Part shown: positions 1-13,297 of the stretch, in pieces
Position numbering within the stretch: position 1 is the stretch's first letter
How the letters are laid out: each line of letters opens with the position of its first letter
Virus record (IMG/VR): IMGVR_UViG_2541047827_000004
Direction: 5' to 3' (one strand)
Length of the DNA: 13,297 bases
Source: a virus
Taxonomy: Duplodnaviria > Heunggongvirae > Uroviricota > Caudoviricetes
Notes under the pieces: generated by a model
What the model was told of the DNA's origin: nothing
Databases searched by the model: none
Seen by the model: the letters and a program-made list of their open reading frames with translations, nothing else
Made by a program: the position numbers and the translations under genes

Positions 1-74
1 CGCGGATTCAGGTGCTGGTACTGAATTCACCGGGAGGCACCCGGCACCATGCAATGGCACATAGCGCCACTCTC

Positions 75-110
75 CAGCCCCTCTCCGGAGGGGCTGTTTA
101 TATTGATTTT
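75..110 (+). terminator. Intrinsic terminator-like hairpin, possibly the tR'-like late-leader terminator
   Basis: Perfect 9-bp stem CAGCCCCTC (75-83) / GAGGGGCTG (88-96) with a 4-nt loop, followed by TTTATATTGATTTT. The late promoter itself would lie upstream of the window. Confidence 0.5.
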
Positions 111-130
111 GTCAGATGTGAGTAAACTGC

Positions 131-466
131 TTATGGACTTTGTTGTTTTAGCCCATAAGGACATATTTGCAGAGTGCAACGGTTATTAAAGCATTCATTC
201 AATACGTTATCTGTATTTGTAGGGCATTCCTGGCTGTTTTTGATTAAATTCCAGAATGTTTTATTGAATGGTACTACGTTGTAAATGGTTACAGGTAGCA
301 CTTTGTTATTGAGCATGATACCTGTGTGAGTCAGTGTAAATATACTTTCAGGAGGTAAGAAAGCATCCGATTGATACCAGATTATTAATTTTATTTTACT
401 CCATATGACTGAAAAAGATATTCCGCATGATGGCTGGATAACTGTATCAATCACAATCCACTTCAT
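131..466 (-). CDS. Hypothetical protein (111 aa) in an AT-rich island; no recognisable domain
   Basis: Intact ORF with ATG at 466-464 preceded on the minus strand by AAGGAA about 5 nt upstream. Markedly AT-rich compared with flanking phage genes, and opposite in orientation to the late operon. Confidence 0.45.
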
Positions 467-726
467 TTAGTTTCCTTGTTTATGCCTTGCTGGTGATGTT
501 CTGAAAAGTATAAATGATATTTTTGATTGTAAACCATAGAGCAGAATTATTTTTCTGATGTTGTTTATTGTTTATTTAAATGCAGGGTGGTTTATATCTC
601 GTCTTGTAGTTTATCCATGCATATCTGCTTGATGATGAGGTTTTTATTTAAGGTATGGTTTTGTGTTTTTTCTGTATTACATGTCAGGTATTTTAAAGAA
701 TCATTTTTCAGATGGTGGAAAGAACC

Positions 727-915
727 ATGGCATTTAAACACTATGATGTTGTCAGGGCGGCGTCGCCGTCAGATCTTGCGGAAAAGCTGACACATAAACT
801 GAAAGAGGGCTGGCAGCCGTTTGGTAGTCCGGTGGCCATAACCCCTTATACCCTGATGCAGGCGATTGCAGCAGAAGGTGATGTGGTCGTCAGTGGTGCA
901 ACTGAGCCGGAGTGA
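727..915 (+). CDS. Small conserved lambdoid-phage protein (62 aa), possibly DUF1737-like (from memory, unverified)
   Basis: ATG at 727 (MAFKHYDVV...) within ORF 712..915. The sequence resembles small proteins I recall upstream of holin genes in E. coli prophages. Confidence 0.55.
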   Translation: MAFKHYDVVRAASPSDLAEKLTHKLKEGWQPFGSPVAITPYTLMQAIAAEGDVVVSGATEPE

Positions 916-1073
916 TACTACGTCATCGTACTGGCCCGGCATTCCAGGCCATAAAAGACGGTCTGGCAGTGGGACTAAATGCACTGACGCTGACGGATAT
1001 TACCAAAAATGCAACGTATGGCGTTGAGATAGAAAGTCTGGTGCTGGAGATAAATGCACCGGCATCATCATAA
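912..1073 (+). CDS. Possible small ORF (54 aa, GTG start) coupled to the upstream gene
   Basis: GTG at 912-914 overlaps the TGA stop of the preceding gene (GTGA overlap); open frame to TAA at 1071-1073. Not in the ORF track (under 60 aa) and no independent RBS. Confidence 0.25.
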
Positions 1074-1158
1074 AAAGTGAGCCAGTCAAATGGAAGGTAT
1101 CGTTAAACTCACCGGTAGTGTCAGTGGGTCGTCTGAGATGCCTGCATGAGTTATCAGA

Positions 1159-1190
1159 GCCATCAGTACTTAACTGGTGGCTTTTTTATT
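1159..1190 (+). terminator. Intrinsic terminator immediately upstream of the holin gene
   Basis: Stem GCCATCAG (1159-1166) / CTGGTGGC (1174-1181) with one G-U wobble and a 7-nt loop, followed by TTTTTTATTGTTG. It sits 33 nt before the holin start. Confidence 0.45.
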
Positions 1191-1222
1191 GTTGTCAGCT
1201 TCCGGATAACGGGAGACGGGGT

Positions 1223-1438
1223 ATGTACCAGATGGAAAAAATCACAACAGGTGTGTCATACACCACGTCAGCGGTGGGAACGGGCTACTGGTTCCTGCAG
1301 TTGCTGGACAGGGTTTCCCCGTCTCAGTGGGCGGCAATAGGCGTGCTGGGGAGTCTGCTGTTTGGGCTGCTGACATATCTGACTAACCTGTATTTCAAAA
1401 TCAAAGAGGACCGGCGTAAGGCGGCGCGGGGAGAGTAA
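1223..1438 (+). CDS. S: Class II holin (pinholin, phage 21 S21 / DLP12 EssD-like) with dual-start motif
   Basis: Translation [71 protein letters not shown] closely matches the remembered S21 pinholin. Two in-frame Met codons (1223 and 1232) give the antiholin/holin dual start. GGAG lies about 10 nt upstream. The long ORF 1118..1438 is an N-terminal over-extension. Confidence 0.9.
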
Positions 1439-1439
1439 A

Positions 1440-2333
1440 GTGATGAATAAAAAATATGAACTGGTTGTTAAGGGGATAAATAATTACGGGGATAAGGTTA
1501 CTGTTACTGTGAAGTCGGAAGGTGACGGGCAAGCGTCGCTGTTGTTGCCAGATGTGGCGATTAGTCTTGACCGTACTGAAGGTGCCACGCTGGAGTTTTA
1601 CGAAGCTGAGGCGAAAAAGCAGGCGAAGCAGTTTTTCATGGATGTTGCTGCCGGGTTATGTGAAGGGGATGAGCAGTCGCCGGAAAAGCGCCCCGTAATT
1701 TTAGAGGCGCAGGATGTGTTGATAACCTACAAAGGAAAGCTACCGGGAAGAATTACTTGTTCTCTGAAGATGCCGCCGTCAACACTGCGGTCAGAAAAAG
1801 ATGATGTTGAATCACGTATTGAAAAACTGGAGAGCTACGTCGTTGAGCTGAATAAGAAATGGTCGATATTGGTGCCTTCTGGCGATGAAAAGCAGTTTGC
1901 TGCGTTTGACGATTATTGTCGGAAAGTGATGAGCAGAAATCTCGCAGAGTGTTTCAGTATTCATAATGATAATTTCAGTGACCCGGAATGGGAGTGTAAC
2001 CGGCCATCCTTTGTTGTATCCGGTGATGCTGGGAAAATAACCATCTCAGAAAATGGGAAAGTAACACCTCCATCGCACCAGCACAGTGAGGAGCTCATTG
2101 AATTTGCCATTGATTACCTGAAGAACAATAAAAAGCAGGGGCTGATGAAGCGCGTTGGCCGTTGCATGGGATATCTTCAGGTAGCCGCTGAGATTGAAGC
2201 GCTGGCCAGTGGTGCTGATAAGGATGCAATTGTGCGGGAGGCTCTTCTTCGTGATTTTAATACTCCACCCTTTAAAAAAGGGCCGGCTTACTGGCTTCAT
2301 CCGGGGCTGACTTATCTTAAAGTGCGTATTTAG
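1440..2333 (+). CDS. Hypothetical soluble protein (296-297 aa) inserted between holin and endolysin; function unknown
   Basis: Long intact ORF. The likely start is ATG 1443 (GTG at 1440 also in frame), with GGGGAGAG 7 nt upstream, 4 nt after the holin stop. No predicted TM segment or signal peptide and no motif I recognise; six Cys residues. Confidence 0.75.
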   Translation: MMNKKYELVVKGINNYGDKVTVTVKSEGDGQASLLLPDVAISLDRTEGATLEFYEAEAKKQAKQFFMDVAAGLCEGDEQSPEKRPVILEAQDVLITYKGKLPGRITCSLKMPPSTLRSEKDDVESRIEKLESYVVELNKKWSILVPSGDEKQFAAFDDYCRKVMSRNLAECFSIHNDNFSDPEWECNRPSFVVSGDAGKITISENGKVTPPSHQHSEELIEFAIDYLKNNKKQGLMKRVGRCMGYLQVAAEIEALASGADKDAIVREALLRDFNTPPFKKGPAYWLHPGLTYLKVRI

Positions 2334-2369
2334 TGGGCCAGGGACAGCGGCTGAATATTTAATATATCC

Positions 2370-2903
2370 ATGAACACCAAAATCAAATACGGCCTGTCGG
2401 CTGCCGTTCTGGCGCTGATTGCCGCTGGTGCGCCTGCGCCTGACATTCTCGACCAGTTTCTGGATGAAAAGGAAGGTAACCACACCACGGCATACCGTGA
2501 TGGTGCAGGTATCTGGACCATCTGCCGTGGTGCCATCATGGTGGATGGCAAACCTGTCGTTCCGGGCATGAAGTTGTCGAAGGAAAAATGCGACCGGGTT
2601 AACGCCATTGAGCGTGATAAAGCGCTGGCGTGGGTGGAGAAAAACATCAGAGTGCCGCTGACCGAACCCCAGAAAGCGGGGATCGCGTCATTCTGTCCGT
2701 ACAACATTGGTCCCGGTAAGTGTTTCCCGTCGACGTTTTATAAACGAATTAATGCAGGTGATCGCAGGGGAGCGTGTGAGGCGATTCGCTGGTGGATTAA
2801 GGACGGTGGCAGAGACTGCCGTATTCGTTCAAACAACTGCTACGGTCAGGTATCCCGTCGTGACCAGGAGAGCGCGCTGGCGTGCTGGGGTATCGACAGA
2901 TAA
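2370..2903 (+). CDS. R: SAR endolysin (T4-lysozyme-like muramidase, phage 21 R21 / DLP12 RrrD-like)
   Basis: N-terminal weakly hydrophobic Ala/Gly-rich segment (GLSAAVLALIAAGAPAP) typical of a signal-anchor-release domain. Canonical lysozyme catalytic triad spacing E-x8-D-x5-T in EGNHTTAYRDGAGIWT. Close match to remembered RrrD. Confidence 0.9.
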   Translation: MNTKIKYGLSAAVLALIAAGAPAPDILDQFLDEKEGNHTTAYRDGAGIWTICRGAIMVDGKPVVPGMKLSKEKCDRVNAIERDKALAWVEKNIRVPLTEPQKAGIASFCPYNIGPGKCFPSTFYKRINAGDRRGACEAIRWWIKDGGRDCRIRSNNCYGQVSRRDQESALACWGIDR

Positions 2904-2992
2904 GCAGAATATTTTGCTGAAAAATAAGGTATGGCCACGCGGGCGGATAACACGAAATCCTGCGAACTGGCGAAACGTAAGTGAATAAAAGT

Positions 2993-3033
2993 AAAAACCC
3001 CGTTTGTTGGCACCAAGCGAGGTTTTGTGTTTC
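2993..3033 (+). terminator. Possible intrinsic terminator/attenuator downstream of the endolysin gene
   Basis: Imperfect stem AACCCCG (2996-3002) / CGAGGTT (3018-3024) with one mismatch, followed by a U-rich tract TTTTGTGTTTCT. Confidence 0.3.
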
Positions 3034-3059
3034 TGACCTTGAGTAAGGCAAGGGAGAAC

Positions 3060-3242
3060 ATGGCGAAGTGTAAACGAATTCTGTTGAGGTTGACTATGAA
3101 AAATGGCCTTGAACTGAAAGCGCCTGTAACTGATGACATCAGCAGAGCACTGGCTTTTGCCATTAAGTGGGTGGCGGTCGGTGTTGCTGTGTCCCCGATG
3201 CTGTATGGGCTGGCAAAACTGGTCATTGCGTTGAAATCGTGA
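3060..3242 (+). CDS. Small hypothetical protein (60 aa) with a C-terminal hydrophobic segment
   Basis: ATG at 3060 preceded by AGGGAGA. Translation [11 protein letters not shown]...[29 protein letters not shown] has a basic N-terminus and a hydrophobic C-terminus. Lies between endolysin and Rz. Confidence 0.4.
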
Positions 3243-3256
3243 AGGGAGGATTAAGC

Positions 3257-3388
3257 ATGTCAGACAAACTCATAACGCTGGCGAAGATCCTCTGTGTAAT
3301 TGTCGGCATTTCATTTTCACTAATGCTGGTTGCTCTTTTTCTTTCCATGGCCTGGATGATGTTGTCTTCGTCGGGGTTGCTGGGGTGA
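3257..3388 (+). CDS. Small hydrophobic single-TM protein (43 aa), stop overlapping the Rz start
   Basis: ATG at 3257 with GGGAGG 6 nt upstream. Translation [43 protein letters not shown]. Its TGA (3386-3388) overlaps the Rz GTG (3385-3387) as GTGA. Confidence 0.4.
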
Positions 3389-3858
3389 ACATAAACCGAA
3401 TGCTTTCCGCGTTTATCGTTATTCTGCTGGTGGCCTGTGGTGCGCTGTGGATGGCAACAGACCATTACCGTGATAACGCGATTACCTACAAAGCGCAGCG
3501 CGATAACAAAGCCAGTGAACTGAAGCTGGCGAACGCAACCATTACTGATATGCAGGTGCGCCAGCGCGATGTTGCTGCGCTCGATGCAAAATACTCGAGG
3601 GAATTAGCCGATGCGAGAGCTGAAAATGAAACTCTTCGCGCTGACGTTGCCGCTGGTCGTAAGCGCCTGCGGATCAACGCCACCTGTCCAGGCTCCGTGC
3701 GTGAAGCCCCCACCACCTCCGGCGTGGATAATGCAACCGGCCCCCAACTGGCAGACACCGTTACACGGGATTATTTCACCCTCAGAGAGCGGCTGATGAC
3801 GATGCAGAAGCAACTGGAAGGGGCGCAGGAATATATCCGTACTCAGTGCCTGAAATAA
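3385..3858 (+). CDS. Rz: Rz inner-membrane spanin (i-spanin)
   Basis: N-terminal TM followed by ...[51 protein letters not shown]..., near-identical to remembered lambda Rz. Start is GTG 3385 or ATG 3400. Confidence 0.9.
3626..3796 (+). CDS. Rz1: Rz1 outer-membrane lipoprotein spanin (o-spanin), embedded in the +1 frame of Rz
   Basis: [56 protein letters not shown]: lipobox VVSAC and proline-rich core matching remembered lambda Rz1 ([14 protein letters not shown]). Nested entirely within Rz. Confidence 0.85.
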
Positions 3859-4184
3859 GTTTTGTTGATGCGCCGTATCGTCGCTATATTCCCTCATTAA
3901 CAGAGACCGCAGCCCGACAGGGAGACTCCTCTGCGCGAGTGTGCGGGGATAATCAAAAACGATACACACCGGGGTTTACCGCGTTAACGGAGCGCGGCGT
4001 TGTCCCCTCATAGTCGCCTGTCCGGTGCGATGGTGGAAGAAACAGGAAGCTGTATTACAGAAAGTGCTACTACTGTATCCCGATGCGATGTATGTAATGT
4101 GAGTCAGATAATGGCACAGGATGTGGTGATGTGGCAGTCTGGAACACAGGATATATTGTCAGAATAAGACCCGTAGGAATAAAA

Positions 4185-4511
4185 ATGAAAAGACGCCTTT
4201 TACTACTTTTTCTGTTATCTGTCCTGGCAGTGGGATGCTCGCAGCAAAAAGCTGATGAGCCCCGGCAATTAGTGACGGTGTATCCACGATATCCGGAATA
4301 TGCTGCAGCAAATTATATCAAGGGGCTGGTTGAGGTTAAGTTCGATATTGGTGCTGATGGGACTGTGACACGGATCGTTTTTCTCCGCTCAGAGCCTCAT
4401 AATTTGTTTCGTGATGAAGTGGTGAAGGCCATGGCGAAATGGCGATTTGAAAAGAATCGCCCCTGTCAGGGAGTGAAGAGACAATTTATCTTTACGCCGT
4501 CACGTCCTTGA
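4185..4511 (+). CDS. Small lipoprotein with a TonB C-terminal-like domain (109 aa)
   Basis: ATG 4185 with AGGAA upstream. Signal peptide plus lipobox (LAVGC). The mature part, VYPRYPEYAAANYIKGLVEVKFDIGADGTVTRIVFLRSEPHNLFRDEVVKAMAKWRF, aligns motif-for-motif with the E. coli TonB C-terminal domain ([53 protein letters not shown]). Confidence 0.75.
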   Translation: MKRRLLLLFLLSVLAVGCSQQKADEPRQLVTVYPRYPEYAAANYIKGLVEVKFDIGADGTVTRIVFLRSEPHNLFRDEVVKAMAKWRFEKNRPCQGVKRQFIFTPSRP

Positions 4512-4603
4512 TGCTTCCAGGTAGAGAGGGGCTGGACGCAGGAGAAAAATGAAAGAGCCAGCGGTTATATTTTTGTCATGGCTGACGAGGAATGATGGAA
4601 GAA

Positions 4604-4626
4604 GGCGTTGTATGCCACACAACGCC
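4604..4626. terminator. Hairpin between convergent genes (possible bidirectional terminator)
   Basis: Perfect 8-bp stem GGCGTTGT (4604-4611) / ACAACGCC (4619-4626) with a 7-nt loop; T-rich sequence follows on the + strand. The U tracts are interrupted, so it is weak as a canonical terminator. Confidence 0.3.
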
Positions 4627-4633
4627 TCACTGT

Positions 4634-4813
4634 TCATTTCTTCTTTTTCTCTGGTGGAACCCGATGAATAAGAGTTGCACTGGTTTCCGATGAGATGGCG
4701 ATATACTCGGGCAAAGTATGCTGGCAGTTTTCCAACTGGTCAAAAATACCTGCTCTCGTCTGTTGCAATGCCTGCAGCATGCGGCGGCAATGCGCCTTGC
4801 TTTTACTAACCAT
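4634..4813 (-). CDS. Hypothetical small protein (59 aa)
   Basis: ATG at 4813-4811 preceded on the minus strand by GAGGAAGGAAAG. The longer 117-aa ORF (4634..4987) overlaps the next minus-strand gene and is probably an over-extension. Confidence 0.3.
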   Translation of the reverse strand: MVSKSKAHCRRMLQALQQTRAGIFDQLENCQHTLPEYIAISSETSATLIHRVPPEKKKK

Positions 4814-4874
4814 CTTTCCTTCCTCTATCAGTCGCTGCGTGAACTCATCATGTAATACCAGGTAAATGCGGATG

Positions 4875-5126
4875 TTATCGGTTTTGGCTACGCAGCATAG
4901 TACAAAACGGACAGGTGCATCCCGGGACGGGGGAGGCGTCACATGTCCCTGTGATGGTTGTTCCGGGTAATGCACTGTGTGGGGCATAAAAATGTCCGAT
5001 AATTTTACTTTCTACCGCAGTTAGTTGATTCGTTGGTCCTGGTAGCACATTGGGCGAGGATTTAAATGCCAGGCAACTGAAGGATGATGTTGCAAGGGAG
5101 ATAGCGAGAATATTTCTGATTTTCAT
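4875..5126 (-). CDS. Hypothetical secreted Cys-rich small protein (83 aa)
   Basis: ATG at 5126-5124 with AGAGG about 9 nt upstream. N-terminal signal-peptide-like MKIRNILAISLATSSFSCLA; C-terminal Cys cluster TGTCDASPVPGCTCPFC. Lies just inside cos in the bor-like moron slot. Confidence 0.4.
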   Translation of the reverse strand: MKIRNILAISLATSSFSCLAFKSSPNVLPGPTNQLTAVESKIIGHFYAPHSALPGTTITGTCDASPVPGCTCPFCTMLRSQNR

Positions 5127-5262
5127 TTGATGATGCCTCTGTGTGAAATGACGGTAAACGACGCACTTGTGCCGGCACATAATAGCAAGCACCATAATAG
5201 ATCAGATTCGATTCTTGCTGTAAGTGATAATTATTCTCGTTTTCGGGTCCTTTCCGTCGATC

Positions 5263-5425
5263 CAACAGGTTACGGGGCGGCGACCTCGCGGGTTTTCGCT
5301 ATTTATGAAAATTTTCCGGGAACCATGTCCGGTTTCTCTTCAAGTTAACTATATGAAAAATAAAAAAAGAGGTCTTCTGTGAACCGGACATGCACAAAAA
5401 ATAGACATGTAAGCCGGACATGACC
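5263..5425 (+). promoter_or_regulatory. cos: cos site: cosN cohesive-end site (GGGCGGCGACCT, 5275..5286) plus cosB with three terminase-binding-like repeats
   Basis: CAGGTTACGGGGCGGCGACCTCGCGGGTTTTCGCTATTTATGAAAATTTTCCGG matches the lambda cos sequence as I remember it. Downstream repeats CATGTCCGG (5324-5332, inverted) and CCGGACATG (5384-5392 and 5414-5422) flank an AT-rich spacer. Located immediately upstream of the terminase genes. Confidence 0.85.
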
Positions 5426-5469
5426 GGTTTTGTTGTGATTGTGAAGTGAGAGTTTTTGCGAGGTGAGGA

Positions 5470-5979
5470 GTGGCTACGCAGACTGAAGTTGCCAGGCATT
5501 TAAGTCTGACCGATCGCCAGCTTCGCAGATTGCAGAAATTGCCGGGTGCCCCGATATCGAATAAGCGAGGGCAACTGGATCTGGATGCCTGGCGCGATTT
5601 TTACATATCGTATCTGAGAAGAAGTAAAAACGATGTGCCTGATGGCGATAGCGAAGACGACTATGAGGAGAAATTGCTTATTGCCAGATGGGAACTGACA
5701 GCAGAACAGGCTGTTACACAGCAGTTAAAAAATGAGGTGTCAAAAGGAAAACTTATTGATACCGGGTTCTGTATTTTTGCCCTCAGCAAGCTGGCAATGG
5801 CGTTATCCAGTACGCTTGATTCCATCCCTTTATCCATGCAGCGACAGTTTCCTGATTTAACACCGCGCCATCTTGACCATCTGAAAACCCTTATTGCGAA
5901 GGGGGCAAATCAGTGTGCGCGGGCGGGGGATAAATTACCGGATTTACTCGATGAATATATCAGAGCAACAACTGAATAA
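5470..5979 (+). CDS. nu1: Terminase small subunit (Nu1 / phage 21 gp1 family)
   Basis: GTG start at 5470 with GAGGTGAGGAG upstream. The C-terminal two-thirds resemble Nu1-family proteins; the N-terminal putative DNA-binding region is divergent. The 3' end overlaps the terminase large subunit start, as in lambda. Confidence 0.8.
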   Translation: MATQTEVARHLSLTDRQLRRLQKLPGAPISNKRGQLDLDAWRDFYISYLRRSKNDVPDGDSEDDYEEKLLIARWELTAEQAVTQQLKNEVSKGKLIDTGFCIFALSKLAMALSSTLDSIPLSMQRQFPDLTPRHLDHLKTLIAKGANQCARAGDKLPDLLDEYIRATTE

Positions 5980-7879
5980 TATGATGAGTGCTGTCACAAC
6001 AGCATTACAGCCCCTGATAAGGGCATTGCCGGTGACGCCAGTTGAATGGGCTGATCAAAATTATTATCTGCCTAAAGAATCTTCATATGGTGAGGGAGAA
6101 TGGAAAACGCTGCCGTTCCAGATCGCCATCATGAACAGCATGGGGAATGATCAGATCCGGACTGTTAATCTGATTAAATCTGCCCGTGTTGGCTATACAA
6201 AGATGTTGCTGGGGGTGGTCGGGTATTTTATTGAGCATAAATCCCGAAACAGTCTGCTTTTTCAGCCCACGGATTCTGCCGCTGAAGATTTTATGAAGTC
6301 TCACGTGGAGGCGACGATTCGGGATGTGCCATGTCTGAAAGACCTTTTTCCATGGCTGGGGCGTAAACATCGTGACAATACCCTCACGCTGAAACGCTTT
6401 TCATCGGGTGTGGGTTTCTGGTGCCTGGGCGGCGCTGCCGCCAAAAACTACCGTGAAAAATCCGTGGACGTGGTCTGCTATGACGAACTTTCCTCGTTCG
6501 AACCGGATGTCGAAAAAGAGGGTTCGCCAACCCTGCTTGGGGATAAACGTATTGAGGGCTCTGTATGGCCCAAATCCATTCGCGGCTCGACGCCTAAAAT
6601 CAAAGGCACCTGCCAGATCGAAAAAGCGGCCAACGAGTCGGCGCATTTCATGCGTTTTTATGTGCCCTGCCCACACTGTGGGGAGGAGCAGTATCTGAAA
6701 TTTGGCGATGAATCCACGCCTTTTGGCCTTAAATGGGAGAAGGACAGCCCCGAAAGCGTTTTCTACCTCTGTGAACATCATGGCTGCGTGATCCATCAGT
6801 CTGAGCTTGACCAGAGCAACGGGCGGTGGATCTGTGAAAACACGGGGATGTGGACCCGTGACGGTCTGACGTTTTTCAGCGCCGCGGATAATGAAATTCC
6901 GCCGCCGCGCTCCATCACGTTCCATATCTGGACGGCGTACAGTCCGTTCACCACCTGGGTACAGATAGTCTATGACTGGCTGGATGCACTGAAAGATCCC
7001 AACGGCCTGAAAACCTTTGTGAACACCACGCTGGGCGAGACCTGGGAAGAGGCCGTGGGCGAAAAACTCGATCACCAGGTACTGATGGATAAGGTCGTGC
7101 ATTACACGGCGGCGGTGCCAGCCCGGGTGGTTTATCTGACGGCGGGCATTGACTCGCAGCGAAACCGTTTTGAGATGTATGTCTGGGGATGGGCACCGGG
7201 AGAGGAAGCTTTTCTGGTGGATAAAATCATCATTATGGGCCGTCCCGATGAGGAAGAGACGCTGTTACGTGTGGATGCGGCGATCAACAAAAAATACTGC
7301 CATGCAGACGGAACCGAAATGACCATTTCCCGTGTCTGCTGGGACACCGGGGGGATCGATGGTGAAATTGTCTATCAGAGGTCAAAAAAACACGGTGTTT
7401 TCCGTGTGCTGCCGGTAAAAGGCGCGTCTGTCTATGGCAAGCCGGTGATCACCATGCCGAAAACCCGCAATCAGCGGGGCGTGTATCTGTGTGAAGTGGG
7501 GACGGACACCGCAAAAGAAATTCTCTATGCCCGTATGAAAGCCGATCCCACGCCTGCGGATGAAGCCACGTCGTATGCCATCCGTTTTCCTGATGATCCG
7601 GAGATTTTTTCGCAGACAGAGGCGCAGCAACTGGTCGCGGAAGAGCTTGTGGAGAAGTGGGAAAAAGGAAAGATGCGTCTGCTGTGGGATAACAAAAAGC
7701 GGCGTAACGAAGCGCTGGACTGCCTGGTGTATGCCTATGCGGCATTACGTGTGTCCGTGCAACGCTGGCAGCTTGATCTGGCTGTACTGGCAAAATCCCG
7801 GGAAGAAGAGACGACCCGGCCAACCCTTAAAGAACTGGCAGCGAAGCTGTCCGGAGGAGTGAATGGTTACAGTCGCTGA
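5951..7879 (+). CDS. A: Terminase large subunit (lambda gpA-like)
   Basis: From ATG 5951 (MNISEQQLNN...) the translation is collinear with remembered lambda gpA (VEWADQNYYLPKESSYGEGEWKTLPFQ..., KNYREKSVDV, C-terminal KKRRNEALDC). The track ORF 5894..7879 has an over-extended N-terminus. Confidence 0.95.
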   Translation: MNISEQQLNNMMSAVTTALQPLIRALPVTPVEWADQNYYLPKESSYGEGEWKTLPFQIAIMNSMGNDQIRTVNLIKSARVGYTKMLLGVVGYFIEHKSRNSLLFQPTDSAAEDFMKSHVEATIRDVPCLKDLFPWLGRKHRDNTLTLKRFSSGVGFWCLGGAAAKNYREKSVDVVCYDELSSFEPDVEKEGSPTLLGDKRIEGSVWPKSIRGSTPKIKGTCQIEKAANESAHFMRFYVPCPHCGEEQYLKFGDESTPFGLKWEKDSPESVFYLCEHHGCVIHQSELDQSNGRWICENTGMWTRDGLTFFSAADNEIPPPRSITFHIWTAYSPFTTWVQIVYDWLDALKDPNGLKTFVNTTLGETWEEAVGEKLDHQVLMDKVVHYTAAVPARVVYLTAGIDSQRNRFEMYVWGWAPGEEAFLVDKIIIMGRPDEEETLLRVDAAINKKYCHADGTEMTISRVCWDTGGIDGEIVYQRSKKHGVFRVLPVKGASVYGKPVITMPKTRNQRGVYLCEVGTDTAKEILYARMKADPTPADEATSYAIRFPDDPEIFSQTEAQQLVAEELVEKWEKGKMRLLWDNKKRRNEALDCLVYAYAALRVSVQRWQLDLAVLAKSREEETTRPTLKELAAKLSGGVNGYSR

Positions 7880-8069
7880 ACTACAGGCGCTGCGTCAGGC
7901 GCGCCTTGATTTATTAACCGGTAAACGGGTGGTGTCTGTCCAGAAAGATGGTCGCAGAATTGAATATACGGCGGCCTCTCTGGATGAGCTTAACCGTGCG
8001 ATCAATGATGCTGAGTTGGTACTGGGGACAACCCGCCGTCGCCGTCGTCCGCTGGGAGTGAGGTTATGA
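7863..8069 (+). CDS. W: Head-tail joining protein W
   Basis: 68 aa; LLTGKRVVSVQKDGRRIEYTAASL matches lambda gpW ([23 protein letters not shown]). GGAGGAG RBS; start overlaps the terminase 3' end. Confidence 0.9.
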   Translation: MVTVAELQALRQARLDLLTGKRVVSVQKDGRRIEYTAASLDELNRAINDAELVLGTTRRRRRPLGVRL

Positions 8070-9658
8070 AACGAACGCCTGTCCTGATTGATGTGAACGG
8101 CGTTCCGCTTCGTGAGAGTCTCAGCTACAACGGGGGCGGCGCAGGATTTGGCGGGCAAATGGCGGAGTGGTTGCCACCGGCGCAGAGTGCCGATGCGGCC
8201 CTGCTACCCGCGTTGCGTCTGGGGAATGCCCGGGCAGATGATCTGGTGCGCAATAACGGAATAGCGGCTAATGCGGTGGCTCTGCATAAGGATCACATTG
8301 TCGGGCATATGTTTCTTATCAGCTACCGCCCGAACTGGCGCTGGTTGGGGATGCGGGAGACCGCGACAAAAAGTTTTGTCGATGAGGTGGAGGCGGCCTG
8401 GTCAGAATACGCAGAAGGGGTGTTTGGCGAGATCGACGTGGAAGGGAAACGCACGTTTACAGAATTTATTCGTGAAGGTGTGGGCGTTCATGCGTTTAAC
8501 GGCGAAATCTTTGTGCAGCCGGTCTGGGATACGGAAACCACGCAGTTATTCCGTACGCGTTTTAAAGCCGTGAGTCCGAAACGGGTGGACACGCCTGGAC
8601 ACGGTATGGGGAACCGTTTTCTGCGGGCCGGGGTGGAGGTCGATCGATATGGTCGTGCCGTTGCGTACCATATCTGTGAGGATGATTTTCCGTTCTCCGG
8701 GAGTGGACGATGGGAACGGATCCCGCGTGAACTTCCCACCGGGCGTCCGGCCATGCTGCATATTTTCGAGCCGGTGGAGGACGGGCAGACCCGTGGGGCT
8801 AATCAGTTTTACAGCGTCATGGAACGGCTGAAGATGCTCGATTCCCTGCAGGCAACACAGCTTCAGTCGGCCATAGTGAAGGCGATGTATGCAGCGACGA
8901 TTGAAAGTGAACTTGATACCGAAAAGGCCTTTGAATATATCGCCGGTGCGCCGCAGGGGCAGAAGGATAATCCGCTTATTAATATTCTGGATAAGTTCTC
9001 CACCTGGTATGACACGAATCACGTGACGCTGGGCGGTGTCAAAATTCCGCACCTTTTCCCCGGTGATGATCTGAAACTTCAGACCGCGCAGGATTCAGAC
9101 AATGGATTTTCGGCGCTTGAACAGGCGCTGCTGCGGTATATCGCCGCCGGTCTTGGCGTTTCCTACGAACAGTTGTCCCGTGATTACTCGAAGGTCAGTT
9201 ATTCAAGTGCCCGCGCATCCGCCAATGAGTCGTGGCGCTATTTTATGGGGCGGCGAAAATTTATTGCGTCCCGGCTGGCCACGCAGATGTTTTCCTGCTG
9301 GCTGGAAGAGGCACTTCTTCGGGGGATTATTCGTCCGCCACGGGCACGTTTTGATTTTTATCAGGCGCGATCAGCCTGGTCACGGGCTGAGTGGATTGGA
9401 GCCGGAAGAATGGCCATTGACGGGCTCAAGGAGGTTCAGGAATCAGTGATGCGCATTGAGGCCGGACTGAGCACGTATGAGAAAGAGCTGGCGCTGATGG
9501 GCGAGGATTATCAGGACATTTTCCGCCAGCAGGTCAGGGAATCTGCAGAGCGGGAAAAAGCCGGACTCTCACGTCCGGTGTGGATAGCGCAGGCGTATCA
9601 GCAGCAGATAGCGGAGAGTCGCAGGCCGGAAGAGGAGACAACACCACGTGAGACGTAA
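8066..9658 (+). CDS. B: Portal protein (lambda gpB-like)
   Basis: 530 aa in the lambda B position; ATG overlaps the W stop (ATGA). Size and synteny fit the lambda portal. Confidence 0.9.
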   Translation: MKRTPVLIDVNGVPLRESLSYNGGGAGFGGQMAEWLPPAQSADAALLPALRLGNARADDLVRNNGIAANAVALHKDHIVGHMFLISYRPNWRWLGMRETATKSFVDEVEAAWSEYAEGVFGEIDVEGKRTFTEFIREGVGVHAFNGEIFVQPVWDTETTQLFRTRFKAVSPKRVDTPGHGMGNRFLRAGVEVDRYGRAVAYHICEDDFPFSGSGRWERIPRELPTGRPAMLHIFEPVEDGQTRGANQFYSVMERLKMLDSLQATQLQSAIVKAMYAATIESELDTEKAFEYIAGAPQGQKDNPLINILDKFSTWYDTNHVTLGGVKIPHLFPGDDLKLQTAQDSDNGFSALEQALLRYIAAGLGVSYEQLSRDYSKVSYSSARASANESWRYFMGRRKFIASRLATQMFSCWLEEALLRGIIRPPRARFDFYQARSAWSRAEWIGAGRMAIDGLKEVQESVMRIEAGLSTYEKELALMGEDYQDIFRQQVRESAEREKAGLSRPVWIAQAYQQQIAESRRPEEETTPRET

Positions 9659-11096
9659 TCTTTCACACATTATTGCCGCAGCATTCAATGAACCGCTGCT
9701 TCTGGAGCCCGCCTATGCGCGGGTTTTCTTTTGCGCGCTCGGGCGCGAGATGGGGGCAGCAAGTCTTTCGGTACCACAACAACAGGTACAGCTTGATGCT
9801 CCCGGAATGCTGGCTGAAACGGACGAGTACATGGCCGGAGGTAAACGACCGGCCCGTGTTTACCGGGTGGTGAACGGTATTGCGGTACTGCCGGTGAGCG
9901 GCACGCTGGTGCACCGGCTGGGCGGTATGCGGCCATTTTCCGGAATGACAGGCTATGACGGCATTGTCGCCTGTCTTCAGCAGGCAATGGCAGATAGCCA
10001 GGTGCGGGGCATACTGCTGGACATTGACAGTCCGGGCGGGCAGGCCGCCGGCGCGTTTGACTGCGCTGACATGATTTACCGCCTCCGTCAGCAGAAGCCG
10101 GTCTGGGCACTGTGCAATGACACGGCCTGTTCTGCAGCCATGCTGCTGGCGTCGGCCTGCTCCCGACGGCTGGTTACCCAGACATCCCGTATCGGCTCCA
10201 TTGGCGTGATGATGAGCCATGTCAGCTATGCCGGTCATCTGGCGCAGGCCGGTGTGGATATCACGCTGATTTATGCCGGGGCGCACAAGGTGGATGGCAA
10301 TCAGTTTGAAGCGTTGCCGGCAGAGGTTCGCCAGGATATGCAGCAGCGGATTGATGCGGCGCACCGGATGTTTGCCGAAAAAGTGGCGATGTATACCGGG
10401 TTGTCTGTGGATGCGGTCACGGGAACAGAGGCCGCCGTTTTTGAAGGTCAGTCCGGCATTGAGGCCGGGCTGGCGGATGAATTAATCAATGCGTCGGATG
10501 CCATCAGTGTGATGGCCACGGCGCTGAACAGTAATGTCAGAGGAGGCACTATGCCGCAATTAACTGCAACGGAAGCCGCCGTGCAGGAGAACCAGCGAGT
10601 GATGGGGATCCTGACATGCCAGGAAGCGAAAGGACGTGAACAGCTTGCCACGATGCTGGCAGGGCAACAGGGCATGAGCGTTGAACAGGCCCGGGCGATT
10701 CTGGCCGCGGCGGCACCGCAGCAGCCGGTGGCATCCGCGCAGAGTGAAGCCGATCGCATTATGGCGTGTGAAGAAGCGAACGGTCGTGAACAACTGGCGG
10801 CTGCACCACTGGCGGATGCCGGGCCCTCACTTCGTGATCAGATCATGGCCCTGGATGAGGCAAAAGGGGCAGAAGCGCAGGCTGAAAAACTGGCGGCCTG
10901 CCCGGGAATGACCGTGGAGAGCGCCCGGGCTGTGCTGGCTGCGGGATCAGGTAAGGCCGAACCGGTCTCTGCATCCACAACCGCCCTGTTTGAACATTTC
11001 ATGGCGAACCATTCACCGGCTGCGGTCCAGGGGGGCGTGTCACAGGCGTCAGAAGACGGTGATGCGGACGTGAAAATGCTCATGGCCATGCCATGA
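9648..11096 (+). CDS. C: Head maturation protease / scaffold fusion protein C (S49 ClpP-like peptidase domain plus Nu3-like C-terminal domain)
   Basis: GTG start overlapping the portal stop. N-terminus IAAAFNEPLLLEPAYARVFFCA matches lambda gpC. Length 482 aa versus roughly 439 in lambda, with repeated Nu3-type motifs in the C-terminal domain. Confidence 0.9.
   Translation: MRRNLSHIIAAAFNEPLLLEPAYARVFFCALGREMGAASLSVPQQQVQLDAPGMLAETDEYMAGGKRPARVYRVVNGIAVLPVSGTLVHRLGGMRPFSGMTGYDGIVACLQQAMADSQVRGILLDIDSPGGQAAGAFDCADMIYRLRQQKPVWALCNDTACSAAMLLASACSRRLVTQTSRIGSIGVMMSHVSYAGHLAQAGVDITLIYAGAHKVDGNQFEALPAEVRQDMQQRIDAAHRMFAEKVAMYTGLSVDAVTGTEAAVFEGQSGIEAGLADELINASDAISVMATALNSNVRGGTMPQLTATEAAVQENQRVMGILTCQEAKGREQLATMLAGQQGMSVEQARAILAAAAPQQPVASAQSEADRIMACEEANGREQLAAAPLADAGPSLRDQIMALDEAKGAEAQAEKLAACPGMTVESARAVLAAGSGKAEPVSASTTALFEHFMANHSPAAVQGGVSQASEDGDADVKMLMAMP
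10551..11096 (+). CDS. nu3: Nu3-like scaffolding protein from an in-frame internal start within C (nested gene)
   Basis: Internal ATG at 10551, in frame with C, preceded by a strong AGGAGG 4 nt upstream. Lambda Nu3 is produced by the same nested-start arrangement. Confidence 0.6.
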   Translation: MPQLTATEAAVQENQRVMGILTCQEAKGREQLATMLAGQQGMSVEQARAILAAAAPQQPVASAQSEADRIMACEEANGREQLAAAPLADAGPSLRDQIMALDEAKGAEAQAEKLAACPGMTVESARAVLAAGSGKAEPVSASTTALFEHFMANHSPAAVQGGVSQASEDGDADVKMLMAMP

Positions 11097-11132
11097 AGTC
11101 AGTGCTGAACATCAATACGAGGTTTTTACAAT

Positions 11133-11480
11133 ATGGTGACGAAAACCATCACTGAACAGCGTGCGGAAGTACGTATTTTTGCCGGTAATGATCCGGCTCA
11201 CACCGCCACAGGCAGCAGCGGGATTTCTTCCGCAACACCGGCTCTGACGCCCCTGATGCTGGATGAAGCCACCGGGAAACTGGTGGTCTGGGATGGACAG
11301 AAAGCCGGTAGTGCGGTTGGCATACTGGTACTGCCGCTTGAAGGCACAGAGGCGGTGCTGACCTATTACAAGTCGGGGACCTTTGCGACGGAGGCAATCC
11401 ACTGGCCTGAAAGTGTGGATGAACACAAAAAGGCAAATGCCTTTGCCGGCACAGCCCTGAGTCACGCGGCTCTGCCGTAA
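11133..11480 (+). CDS. D: Head decoration protein D
   Basis: 115 aa; DPAHTATG, TPLMLD, WDG and LTYYKSGTF motifs match lambda gpD. Confidence 0.9.
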   Translation: MVTKTITEQRAEVRIFAGNDPAHTATGSSGISSATPALTPLMLDEATGKLVVWDGQKAGSAVGILVLPLEGTEAVLTYYKSGTFATEAIHWPESVDEHKKANAFAGTALSHAALP

Positions 11481-11537
11481 CACGTTATCAGGCCACCATG
11501 GTGGCCTGACTGATTTCTGAATGAAAGGAACTGATTT

Positions 11538-12566
11538 ATGGGATTGTTTACGACCCGCCAGTTACTCGGTTATACCGAACAAAAAGTTAAATTCCGTGCG
11601 CTGTTTCTGGAGCTGTTTTTCCGCCGTACGGTGAATTTCCACACCGAAGAGGTGATGCTGGACAAAATTACCGGAAAAACGCCGGTGGCGGCCTATGTCT
11701 CCCCGATCGTTGAAGGAAAAGTGCTTCGCCATCGCGGTGGTGAAACCCGCGTGTTACGTCCGGGCTACGTCAAGCCCAAACACGAATTTAATTACCAGCA
11801 GGCGGTTGAGCGCCTTCCTGGTGAAGATCCGGCTCAGCTGAACGACCCGGCCTACCGTCGTCTGCGTATCATTACCGATAACCTCAAACAGGAAGAGCAC
11901 GCCATTGTCCAGGTGGAAGAAATGCAGGCGGTGAATGCCGTGCTGTATGGCAAATACACCATGGAAGGGGATCAGTTTGATACTGTCGAGGTGGATTTCG
12001 GGCGCTCTGAAGGAAATAACATTGAGCAGGCTGACGGTAAAAAATGGTCTGAGCAGGACCGTGATACGTTTGATCCGACGCATGATATTGACCTCTACTG
12101 CGATCAGGCCAGCGGCCTTGTGAATATCGCCATTATGGACGGTACGGTCTGGCGTCTGCTGAATGGCTTTAAGCTGTTCCGCGAAAAACTGGATACCCGT
12201 CGCGGCTCAAATTCACAACTCGAAACGGCAGTGAAAGACCTGGGGGCGGTGGTGTCCTTCAAGGGGTATTACGGCGATCTGGCCATTGTGGTGGCGAAAA
12301 CGTCTTATGTGGCAGAAGACGGTACCGAAAAACGTTATCTGCCGGAGGGCACACTGGTCCTGGGGAATACGGCAGCAGAGGGCATTCGTTGCTATGGTGC
12401 CATTCAGGATGCGCAGGCGTTGTCCGAAGGTGTGGTGGCCTCTTCCCGTTACCCGAAACACTGGCTGACCGTGGGCGATCCGGCCCGTGAATTCACCATG
12501 ACGCAGTCCGCACCGCTGATGGTGCTGCCGGATCCGGATGAGTTTGTGGTGGTACAGGTGAAATAA
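11538..12566 (+). CDS. E: Major capsid protein E
   Basis: 342 aa; extensive collinear identity to lambda gpE (YVSPIV, PGYVKPKHE, EDPAQLNDPAYRRLRII, GDPAREFTMTQSAPLM, DPDEFV). Confidence 0.95.
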   Translation: MGLFTTRQLLGYTEQKVKFRALFLELFFRRTVNFHTEEVMLDKITGKTPVAAYVSPIVEGKVLRHRGGETRVLRPGYVKPKHEFNYQQAVERLPGEDPAQLNDPAYRRLRIITDNLKQEEHAIVQVEEMQAVNAVLYGKYTMEGDQFDTVEVDFGRSEGNNIEQADGKKWSEQDRDTFDPTHDIDLYCDQASGLVNIAIMDGTVWRLLNGFKLFREKLDTRRGSNSQLETAVKDLGAVVSFKGYYGDLAIVVAKTSYVAEDGTEKRYLPEGTLVLGNTAAEGIRCYGAIQDAQALSEGVVASSRYPKHWLTVGDPAREFTMTQSAPLMVLPDPDEFVVVQVK

Positions 12567-12574
12567 TCCGTGAG

Positions 12575-12603
12575 CGGGGGCGAAATGCCCCCGTGTCTTT
12601 TTT
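12575..12603 (+). terminator. Hairpin plus T-run between E and FI (intrinsic terminator/attenuator)
   Basis: Stem CGGGGGC (12575-12581) / GCCCCCG (12587-12593) with a 5-nt loop, followed by TGTCTTTTTT. Confidence 0.5.
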
Positions 12604-12617
12604 CACAGGAGGCTGAG

Positions 12618-13001
12618 ATGGCAACAAAAGAAGAAAATCTGAATCGTCTTCGTCAACTGGCTGGCCTGCTGGGGCGCGAGGCGGATATGTCGGGGAGTGC
12701 TGCGGATATTGCTCAACGTGTGTCTGAGTGGGAAGAGGAGCTTGCTGTTTCCCCGGAGGGCATTATGCACTCTGATGAGAGCGGGGCTGATCAAAATCAC
12801 ACAGACGATGGTGAGCAGTTGAACAACACGGATGCTCCGGATGATGTTAAAGCCGTCCGGGTACGGAAGTGCCTGCAAGTAATGGGGTATTGCCCGGAGA
12901 CAGGTCGTCCCGTTGAGCTGGCGTTACGGGGTATGCGTGTTCTGGTGCCATCATCACTGGCAACGGCCATGATACAGCACGGAACGGCTGAGCATGCGTG
13001 A
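12618..13001 (+). CDS. FI: DNA packaging protein FI-like
   Basis: ATG 12618 with AGGAGG upstream. Position between E and FII and an acidic, low-complexity composition like lambda gpFI. The track ORF start at 12570 runs through the terminator hairpin. Confidence 0.75.
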   Translation: MATKEENLNRLRQLAGLLGREADMSGSAADIAQRVSEWEEELAVSPEGIMHSDESGADQNHTDDGEQLNNTDAPDDVKAVRVRKCLQVMGYCPETGRPVELALRGMRVLVPSSLATAMIQHGTAEHA

Positions 13002-13297
13002 TTTTCAGAATGCCTTTGATGCTGCCCTCGCCGGGGTGGACAGTACGATCGTTGAAGTGATGGGGATCCGTGCGCAGTTCACCTCCGGAGCACAACGTGG
13101 CGGCGAAGTTCAGGGGGTTTTTGACGATCCGGAGTCGCTGGGTTTTGCCGGTGGCGGGGTCCGTATTGAAGGAAGCAGCCCGTCATTATTTGTGCGGACG
13201 GACATAAGGATCACATTGTCGGGCATATGTTTCTTATCAGCTACCGCCCGAACTGGCGCTGGTTGGGGATGCGGGAGACCGCGACAAAAAGTTTTGT
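12994..13297 (+). CDS. FII: Head-tail connector FII-like, 5' part only; lambda-like sequence ends at 13203 where a duplicated portal fragment begins
   Basis: ATG 12994 overlaps the FI stop. GVFDDPESLGFAGGGVRIEGSSPSLFVRTD matches lambda FII (GVFDDPENISYAGQGVRVEGSSPSLFVRTD) through codon 70. From 13203 the DNA is identical to portal positions 8285..8379. Confidence 0.65.
   Translation, partial: MRDFQNAFDAALAGVDSTIVEVMGIRAQFTSGAQRGGEVQGVFDDPESLGFAGGGVRIEGSSPSLFVRTDIRITLSGICFLSATARTGAGWGCGRPRQKVL
13203..13297 (+). repeat. 95-bp exact direct repeat of an internal portal-gene segment (8285..8379)
   Basis: Base-for-base identity between 13203..13297 and 8285..8379, read directly from the sequence. 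Confidence 0.9.

Follow-up and report, generated by a model that had tools for sequence, protein, structure and literature searches.

The window, by which we mean the whole 13,297-nt stretch of tailed-phage DNA analyzed here (Caudoviricetes, IMG/VR record IMGVR_UViG_2541047827_000004), carries at its left end the 3′ part of a small RNA gene, a leftward gene lying in an AT-rich cassette and the remnant of an esterase gene, upstream of the holin and lysozyme genes of a lambdoid prophage (Table 1).

Table 1 Features at the left end of the window, with their positions, strands and the evidence used for each
Feature	Position	Strand	Evidence
3′ part of an STnc100 (RF02076)/PasD-related prophage sRNA gene	1..105	+	cmscan; hairpin 75–96 and T run
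AT-rich iraL cassette (approximate limits)	96..725	.	GC 0.32; PhiR5_1 empty-site comparison
Coding sequence assigned to iraL, 111 aa, IraM-family RssB anti-adaptor	131..466	-	CFT073 identity, NF007393, 8TWD
Predicted iraL 5′ UTR, 33 nt, with AAGGA	467..499	-	RACE sequence of CFT073
Putative sigma-70 promoter: TTTACA 533..528, 15-nt spacer, TATACT 512..507	507..533	-	Read from sequence
Upstream regulatory region, equivalent to −100..−1	500..599	-	CFT073 complementing fragment
nanS-p remnant (DUF1737 and SASA esterase; NanS-p sialate esterase)	727..1073	+	Pfam, L006 alignment

The segment from 97 to 725 has a GC content of 0.324, against 0.528 for positions 727–13297. It is the lowest-GC 630-bp stretch of the 13.3 kb, the next lowest outside it reaching 0.446. 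The phage PhiR5_1 has no iraL and offers an empty site: it resembles the window up to 95 and again from 726 on, and has between these points 233 bp of DNA that is unrelated and visibly richer in G+C. As judged from these breaks in homology, the iraL cassette would span about 96–725, between the hairpin of the sRNA and the start codon of nanS-p.

The leftward open reading frame (ORF) of the cassette starts with ATG, 7–11 nt downstream of an AAGGA ribosome-binding site. Its length alone is modest support for a gene: when the island was shuffled 2000 times with its composition kept, 21 shuffles (1%) gave a stop-free run as long as this, so the ORF is only mildly unusual for its composition, and it is homology that settles its status. 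The encoded protein is identical at 111 of 111 positions to IraL of the uropathogenic E. coli strain CFT073 (WP_000871291.1), with two mismatches in the coding DNA, which places the gene within the definition of iraL used in PMC4045071 (the entire coding sequence no less than 95% identical to that of CFT073). The NCBIfam model NF007393, “anti-adapter protein IraM” (PRK09919), matches with 162 bits for a curated cut-off of 121, residues 1–110 of the protein aligning to profile positions 1–113 of 114. A phmmer search retrieves the crystallized IraM fragment (PDB 8TWD, chain A; E = 9.1e-32) over residues 1–78 with no gaps, and by this alignment residues 1–78 appear homologous to the IraM β-barrel that binds RssB. 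No family was found for the 111-aa protein in a Pfam scan. An earlier sequence-only reading of this DNA had picked out the AT-rich island after the hairpin, up to position 726, and in it the 111-aa reverse-strand ORF with its own ribosome-binding site. Both stand, the comparison with PhiR5_1 setting the right edge at about 725, in agreement with them. That reading had recognized no domain in the protein and had proposed a profile search. The search returned the NCBIfam IraM model above its cut-off and, with the match to 8TWD and the identity to the CFT073 protein, it gives the product both a family, that of the IraM-type RssB anti-adaptors, and a name. We found nothing that contradicts this identification, and consider it very probable that the gene is iraL itself, not merely a relative: a “moron”-like accessory gene of the lysogen, situated between Q and the lysis genes, whose product would block RssB.

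IraM touches RssB through three clusters of residues (PMC10844676). Ten of the 14 contact residues listed there are identical in IraL, including all five of cluster I (I4, I6, W22, K26, and I42); the four changes, whose effect on binding is not readable from sequence, are T13S, H63N, I64V, and L75I and lie in the clusters that touch the C-terminal domain and the linker of RssB. The two proteins have been stated in print to differ in how they bind RssB, and these changes are consistent with that.

The 5′-RACE product of CFT073 iraL begins ACATCACCAGCAAGGCATAAACAAGGAAACCA (PMC4045071), a sequence that corresponds to the minus strand of the window at 499..468 with 31 of 32 bases matching and a single mismatch at 469. 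By this match the start of iraL transcription maps to position 499 (−), which would leave a leader of 33 nt. Predicted −10 and −35 elements of iraL are reported in PMC4045071; the hexamers that we tentatively assign (TTTACA and TATACT) are both identical in CFT073 and are separated by a short spacer. A fragment extending from −100 to +33 complemented an iraL deletion of CFT073 and restored RpoS stability (PMC4045071). Its counterpart in the window, 599..467, is identical to it at 130 of 133 bases, so that the promoter and start are of the iraL type by their identity of at least 96% to CFT073. The three substitutions, at 469 (+31), 500 (−1), and 527 (spacer), all lie outside the hexamers and could alter promoter strength. 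A generic σ70 scan missed the promoter upstream of the published start, and two other σ70-like sites on the minus strand (574..546 and 415..388) were discarded, as such sites are no more frequent there than in shuffles. [quoted passage not shown]

The same gene order is found in the phage vB_EcoS-640R1 (L001) and in the strains CFT073 (L002), CFSAN061761 (L006), and NR363 (L007): Q, variable small genes and tRNA genes, one or two copies of STnc100, iraL on the minus strand, nanS-p or its remnant, holin, YdfR or the DUF1327 protein, and lysozyme. The closest relative overall is NR363, with 98.4% identity over the window, the best full-window matches lying at 98.4–98.5%. In a Stx2a phage (L004), the homologous slot lies directly after stx2AB. 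In CFT073, the “potB genomic island” of PMC4045071 corresponds to a complete lambdoid prophage next to potB, with iraL in the same slot as in the window; it differs from the window in that the stretch from Q to the sRNA holds IS200C and three tRNA genes, and in that YdfR (a 345-nt gene) takes the place of a 297-aa DUF1327 protein. Among 5426 complete E. coli genomes, 1446 carry the iraL cassette, which is 90–99.8% identical in them and reaches three copies per genome at most. Its gene is annotated there as an anti-adapter protein, and in every locus examined it occupies the Q-to-lysis slot of a lambdoid prophage. This agrees with the sequence-only reading, which had placed the gene in the Q-to-S slot where lambdoid phages carry cargo, and had suggested a promoter of its own and possibly expression in the lysogen; the promoter and expression find support in the 5′-RACE start and the log-phase phenotype published for the identical CFT073 gene (PMC4045071). 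Three observations had been named as capable of overturning that reading, namely absence of conservation in related prophages, decay from a larger gene and lack of a minus-strand transcript. None of them is borne out: the ORF recurs in 1446 genomes, is full length with respect to both IraM and IraL, and has a published transcript in CFT073.

To the right of the cassette, the ORF at 727–915 (62 aa, DUF1737, Pfam 62.5 bits) and that at 912–1073 (53 aa) are the N-terminal and C-terminal stubs of nanS-p. Window positions 1–946 align to 3902–4847 of the CFSAN061761 locus at 99.5%, and positions 931–1778 to 6342–7190; this split points to a deletion of about 1.5 kb in nanS-p. At 913–915 the window has a TGA where the full-length protein of CFSAN061761 has a Trp. 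A second terminator-like hairpin, at 1156–1184 (+), consists of a 12-bp stem followed by TTTATTGTTG and lies about 40 nt 5′ of the holin start; phage 640R1 and CFT073 share it, save for a single changed base in its loop. Between holin and lysozyme, the gene at 1440–2333 (+) encodes the 297-aa protein, whose N-terminal part is DUF1327; its position is taken by the short YdfR in CFT073 and in CFSAN061761, and by a truncated YdfR pseudogene in NR363. CFT073 also has a match to the STnc490 Hfq-binding RNA (146 bits) at L002:11568–11691 (+); it adjoins the transposase gene of IS200C, in the part of the same prophage that is bounded by Q and the tRNA genes.

The hairpin to the left of the cassette, at 75–96, has a 4-nt loop and a 9-bp stem with seven G–C pairs, followed by a T run, TTTATATTGATTTT; the folding energy of 60–115 is −20.8 kcal/mol (z = −3.3 against shuffles). 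With cmscan, positions 1–105 of the window match Rfam family RF02076 (STnc100) at 73.8 bits, for a gathering score of 47. The match covers model positions 96–206, which is the 3′ half of the RNA, the 5′ part being cut by the start of the window. Full-length copies occur at the same place in L001, L002, L004, L005 (PhiR5_1), L006, and L007, at 132–154 bits (132.4 bits in L007, the closest relative), and in the structure line of RF02076 the 75–96 hairpin is the terminal stem-loop of the sRNA. In lambda and the Stx phages, the first intrinsic terminator that transcription from pR′ meets is tR′, which directly follows Q and ends a short leader RNA. The sequence-only reading had taken the 75–96 hairpin for this late-leader terminator, an assignment that we reject on account of its position relative to Q and of the Rfam match. 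Across L001, L002, L006, and L007, the hairpin is separated from Q by about 725 nt to 2.6 kb, and tRNA genes intervene in L001, L002, and L006 (1.2–2.6 kb). In L007 the distance from the Q stop codon is about 725 nt, and two terminator-like hairpins on the plus strand (4421–4433 and 4749–4764) are nearer to Q, the first of them only 70 nt after it. The 75–96 hairpin is instead the 3′ terminator of an STnc100-family sRNA gene, and belongs to a series of terminators through which Q-modified polymerase has to read. According to a 2026 preprint, STnc100 is an sRNA that prophages encode; it is related to PasD and often found in Stx-type phages. Tandem copies about 280 bp apart are seen in L001 (5448–5641 and 5917–6105) and in L006 (3349–3542 and 3818–4006). 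The sRNA gene is convergent with iraL, and the minus-strand pseudo-CDS annotated over it in RefSeq records is probably spurious.

The function of IraL has been established in CFT073, where it binds RssB and slows the degradation of RpoS by ClpXP (Hryckowian et al. 2014, mBio; PMC4045071). The RssB–IraL interaction was shown by two-hybrid and pulldown assays, and the half-life of RpoS is about 5 min in CFT073 vs about 2.5 min in the iraL deletion, IraL raising RpoS in unstressed, exponential-phase cells (PMC4045071). In the lysogen, the prophage iraL would accordingly be read leftwards, against phage late transcription, from the σ70-type promoter with its start at 499; the 111-aa product would bind the adaptor RssB, which could then no longer hand RpoS to the ClpXP protease, and RpoS would be stabilized even in unstressed, exponentially growing cells. 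The copy in the window is presumably expressed and active in its own host. The hairpins at 75–96 and 1156–1184 may keep plus-strand transcription from reading into the cassette in the lysogen; once the prophage is induced, late transcription modified by Q would be expected to run antisense across iraL.

The gene is thus already known and characterized: the island feature is real, but already explained. With the lambdoid-phage morons of the Q–S region (stx, bor, lom type) it shares a foreign composition, its own promoter, an accessory function in the lysogen and a place among the late genes; of the features of Hendrix-type morons, the composition (GC 0.32 vs 0.53) is seen in the window and the promoter comes from the literature. 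It differs from these morons in running opposite to late transcription and in having no clear minus-strand terminator, the hairpin read as 96..75 being devoid of a U run. IraL has been associated with Shigella as well as with uropathogenic E. coli, and its presence marks a strain in which the general stress response is already armed in part. What a genome scan gains here is correct labels: IraL instead of a generic “IraM” or an unknown protein, a prophage sRNA for the upstream hairpin and a gene fragment for the neighboring DUF1737 ORF.

One may also suppose that iraL chiefly serves the phage, RpoS tuning the maintenance or induction of the prophage and antisense late transcription shutting iraL off. 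Every locus examined has the gene fixed between Q and the lysis genes and facing late transcription, which would fit such a role, and the 72% co-divergence of the whole block, including the flanking sRNA and nanS-p, suggests a long residence in phage genomes. We regard this as unlikely to be its chief role, although some weight must be given to it, and it is compatible with, not exclusive of, a lysogen gene that blocks RssB.

A much less probable reading is that the gene is IraM proper, controlled by PhoP/PhoQ, induced by Mg2+ starvation and regulated as iraM of K-12. RefSeq and phage records do name it “anti-adapter protein IraM”, the NCBIfam model being common to both proteins, and a PhoP-box-like sequence, TGTTTAttgttTATTTA, with one mismatch lies at 562–578 (+), 63–79 bp upstream of the start. 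IraL and K-12 IraM (YcgW, 8TWD) belong to one family, share the fold region 1–78, four cysteines in the tail and the target RssB, and have been described as paralogs with 58.9% amino-acid identity (PMC4045071). However, the protein is 62% identical to K-12 IraM in our own alignment, with 4 of 14 contact residues changed, vs 100% identical to IraL. PhoP-like matches are no more numerous in the window than expected by chance (four found vs 2.4 expected), the pattern itself being a weak test, as the region upstream of K-12 iraM yields only sites with two mismatches. At the DNA level, similarity to K-12 iraM is restricted to the coding region (window 147–468, 71%), and the upstream regions cannot be aligned. 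In keeping with this, the two genes are reported to be regulated differently: the K-12 iraM promoter is unrelated, PhoP-dependent, and stress-induced, whereas iraL is expressed in log phase and acts in unstressed cells (PMC4045071).

In the 13-kb locus around K-12 iraM, no STnc100 match exceeded the Rfam gathering score. In the region L003:6681–8108, K-12 iraM is found a little way past the annotated end of e14, on the far side of the icdC pseudogene, and adjoins the DUF1398 gene ycgX; another DUF1398 gene, ydfO, is present in the CFT073 prophage. This location, together with the DUF1398 gene in the CFT073 prophage, suggests that the DNA around K-12 iraM was left by a different lambdoid prophage and is not part of e14.

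That the ORF is a chance one, or an inactive remnant in AT-rich junk DNA that recombination between prophages left behind, has almost no credence left, for although it adjoins the decayed nanS-p stub in AT-rich DNA and shuffles match its length at the 1% rate given above, it is not shortened against either IraL (111 aa) or IraM (107 aa), is found in 1446 genomes with its start, ribosome-binding site, and promoter intact in the window, keeps its reading frame in the 72%-identical whole-block allele of Stx2 phages, and is in effect placed beyond such doubt by its identity to a protein with a demonstrated phenotype.

By tblastn, IraM-family genes were found in 46 phage records: IraL in four, a third type in 41 records of Stx2a and Stx2c phages, and a distant fragment from Salmonella in the remaining one. 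Proteins of the third type have 107 aa and are 73% identical to IraL and 65% to K-12 IraM. Its slot and orientation in phages such as Stx2_EH2246, phage 2851, and phage 1717 (STnc100, ira on the minus strand, nanS-p, holin) are those of the window, and the block aligns to window positions 1–946 at 72% DNA identity. In L004, it lies at 3619–3942 (−), directly downstream of stx2AB and STnc100 and upstream of nanS-p. The Stx2-phage ira differs from iraL in its promoter, with TATAAT as −10 and a −35 region unlike that of iraL. It is mostly unannotated in the phage records, and we found no characterization of it in the literature examined.

Besides the uncharacterized Stx2-phage allele, two minor leads arise at this locus, the convergent sRNA and the conserved cysteine tail. 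As iraL has no U-tract terminator, its mRNA may extend antisense into the convergent STnc100-family sRNA gene and could pair with the sRNA or titrate it. After induction, Q-modified late transcription must pass the sRNA terminator and would cross iraL antisense, which would end RpoS stabilization exactly at the lytic switch. The four-cysteine tail could, for its part, be a metal- or redox-sensing site that tunes the activity or stability of the anti-adaptor. Taken jointly, with iraL wired to the prophage state by antisense transcription and the tail forming a separate metal or redox site, these proposals are speculative and, to our mind, rather improbable. The tail comprises residues 81–111 (window 131–226, −), with cysteines at C81-P, C92, C97, and C102-P-Y-G-L. 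It was removed from IraM for crystallography and called less conserved (PMC10844676). Its four cysteines do not vary among the three E. coli types (IraL, IraM, and that of the Stx phages), with P-Y/F-G-L at the end of the motif. RssC of Salmonella is counted in the same IraL/IraM-like anti-adaptor family (PMC4045071); it comes from a different genus and is distant in sequence, and the Salmonella fragment (L008), which is 35% identical to IraL, keeps the tail cysteines as well.
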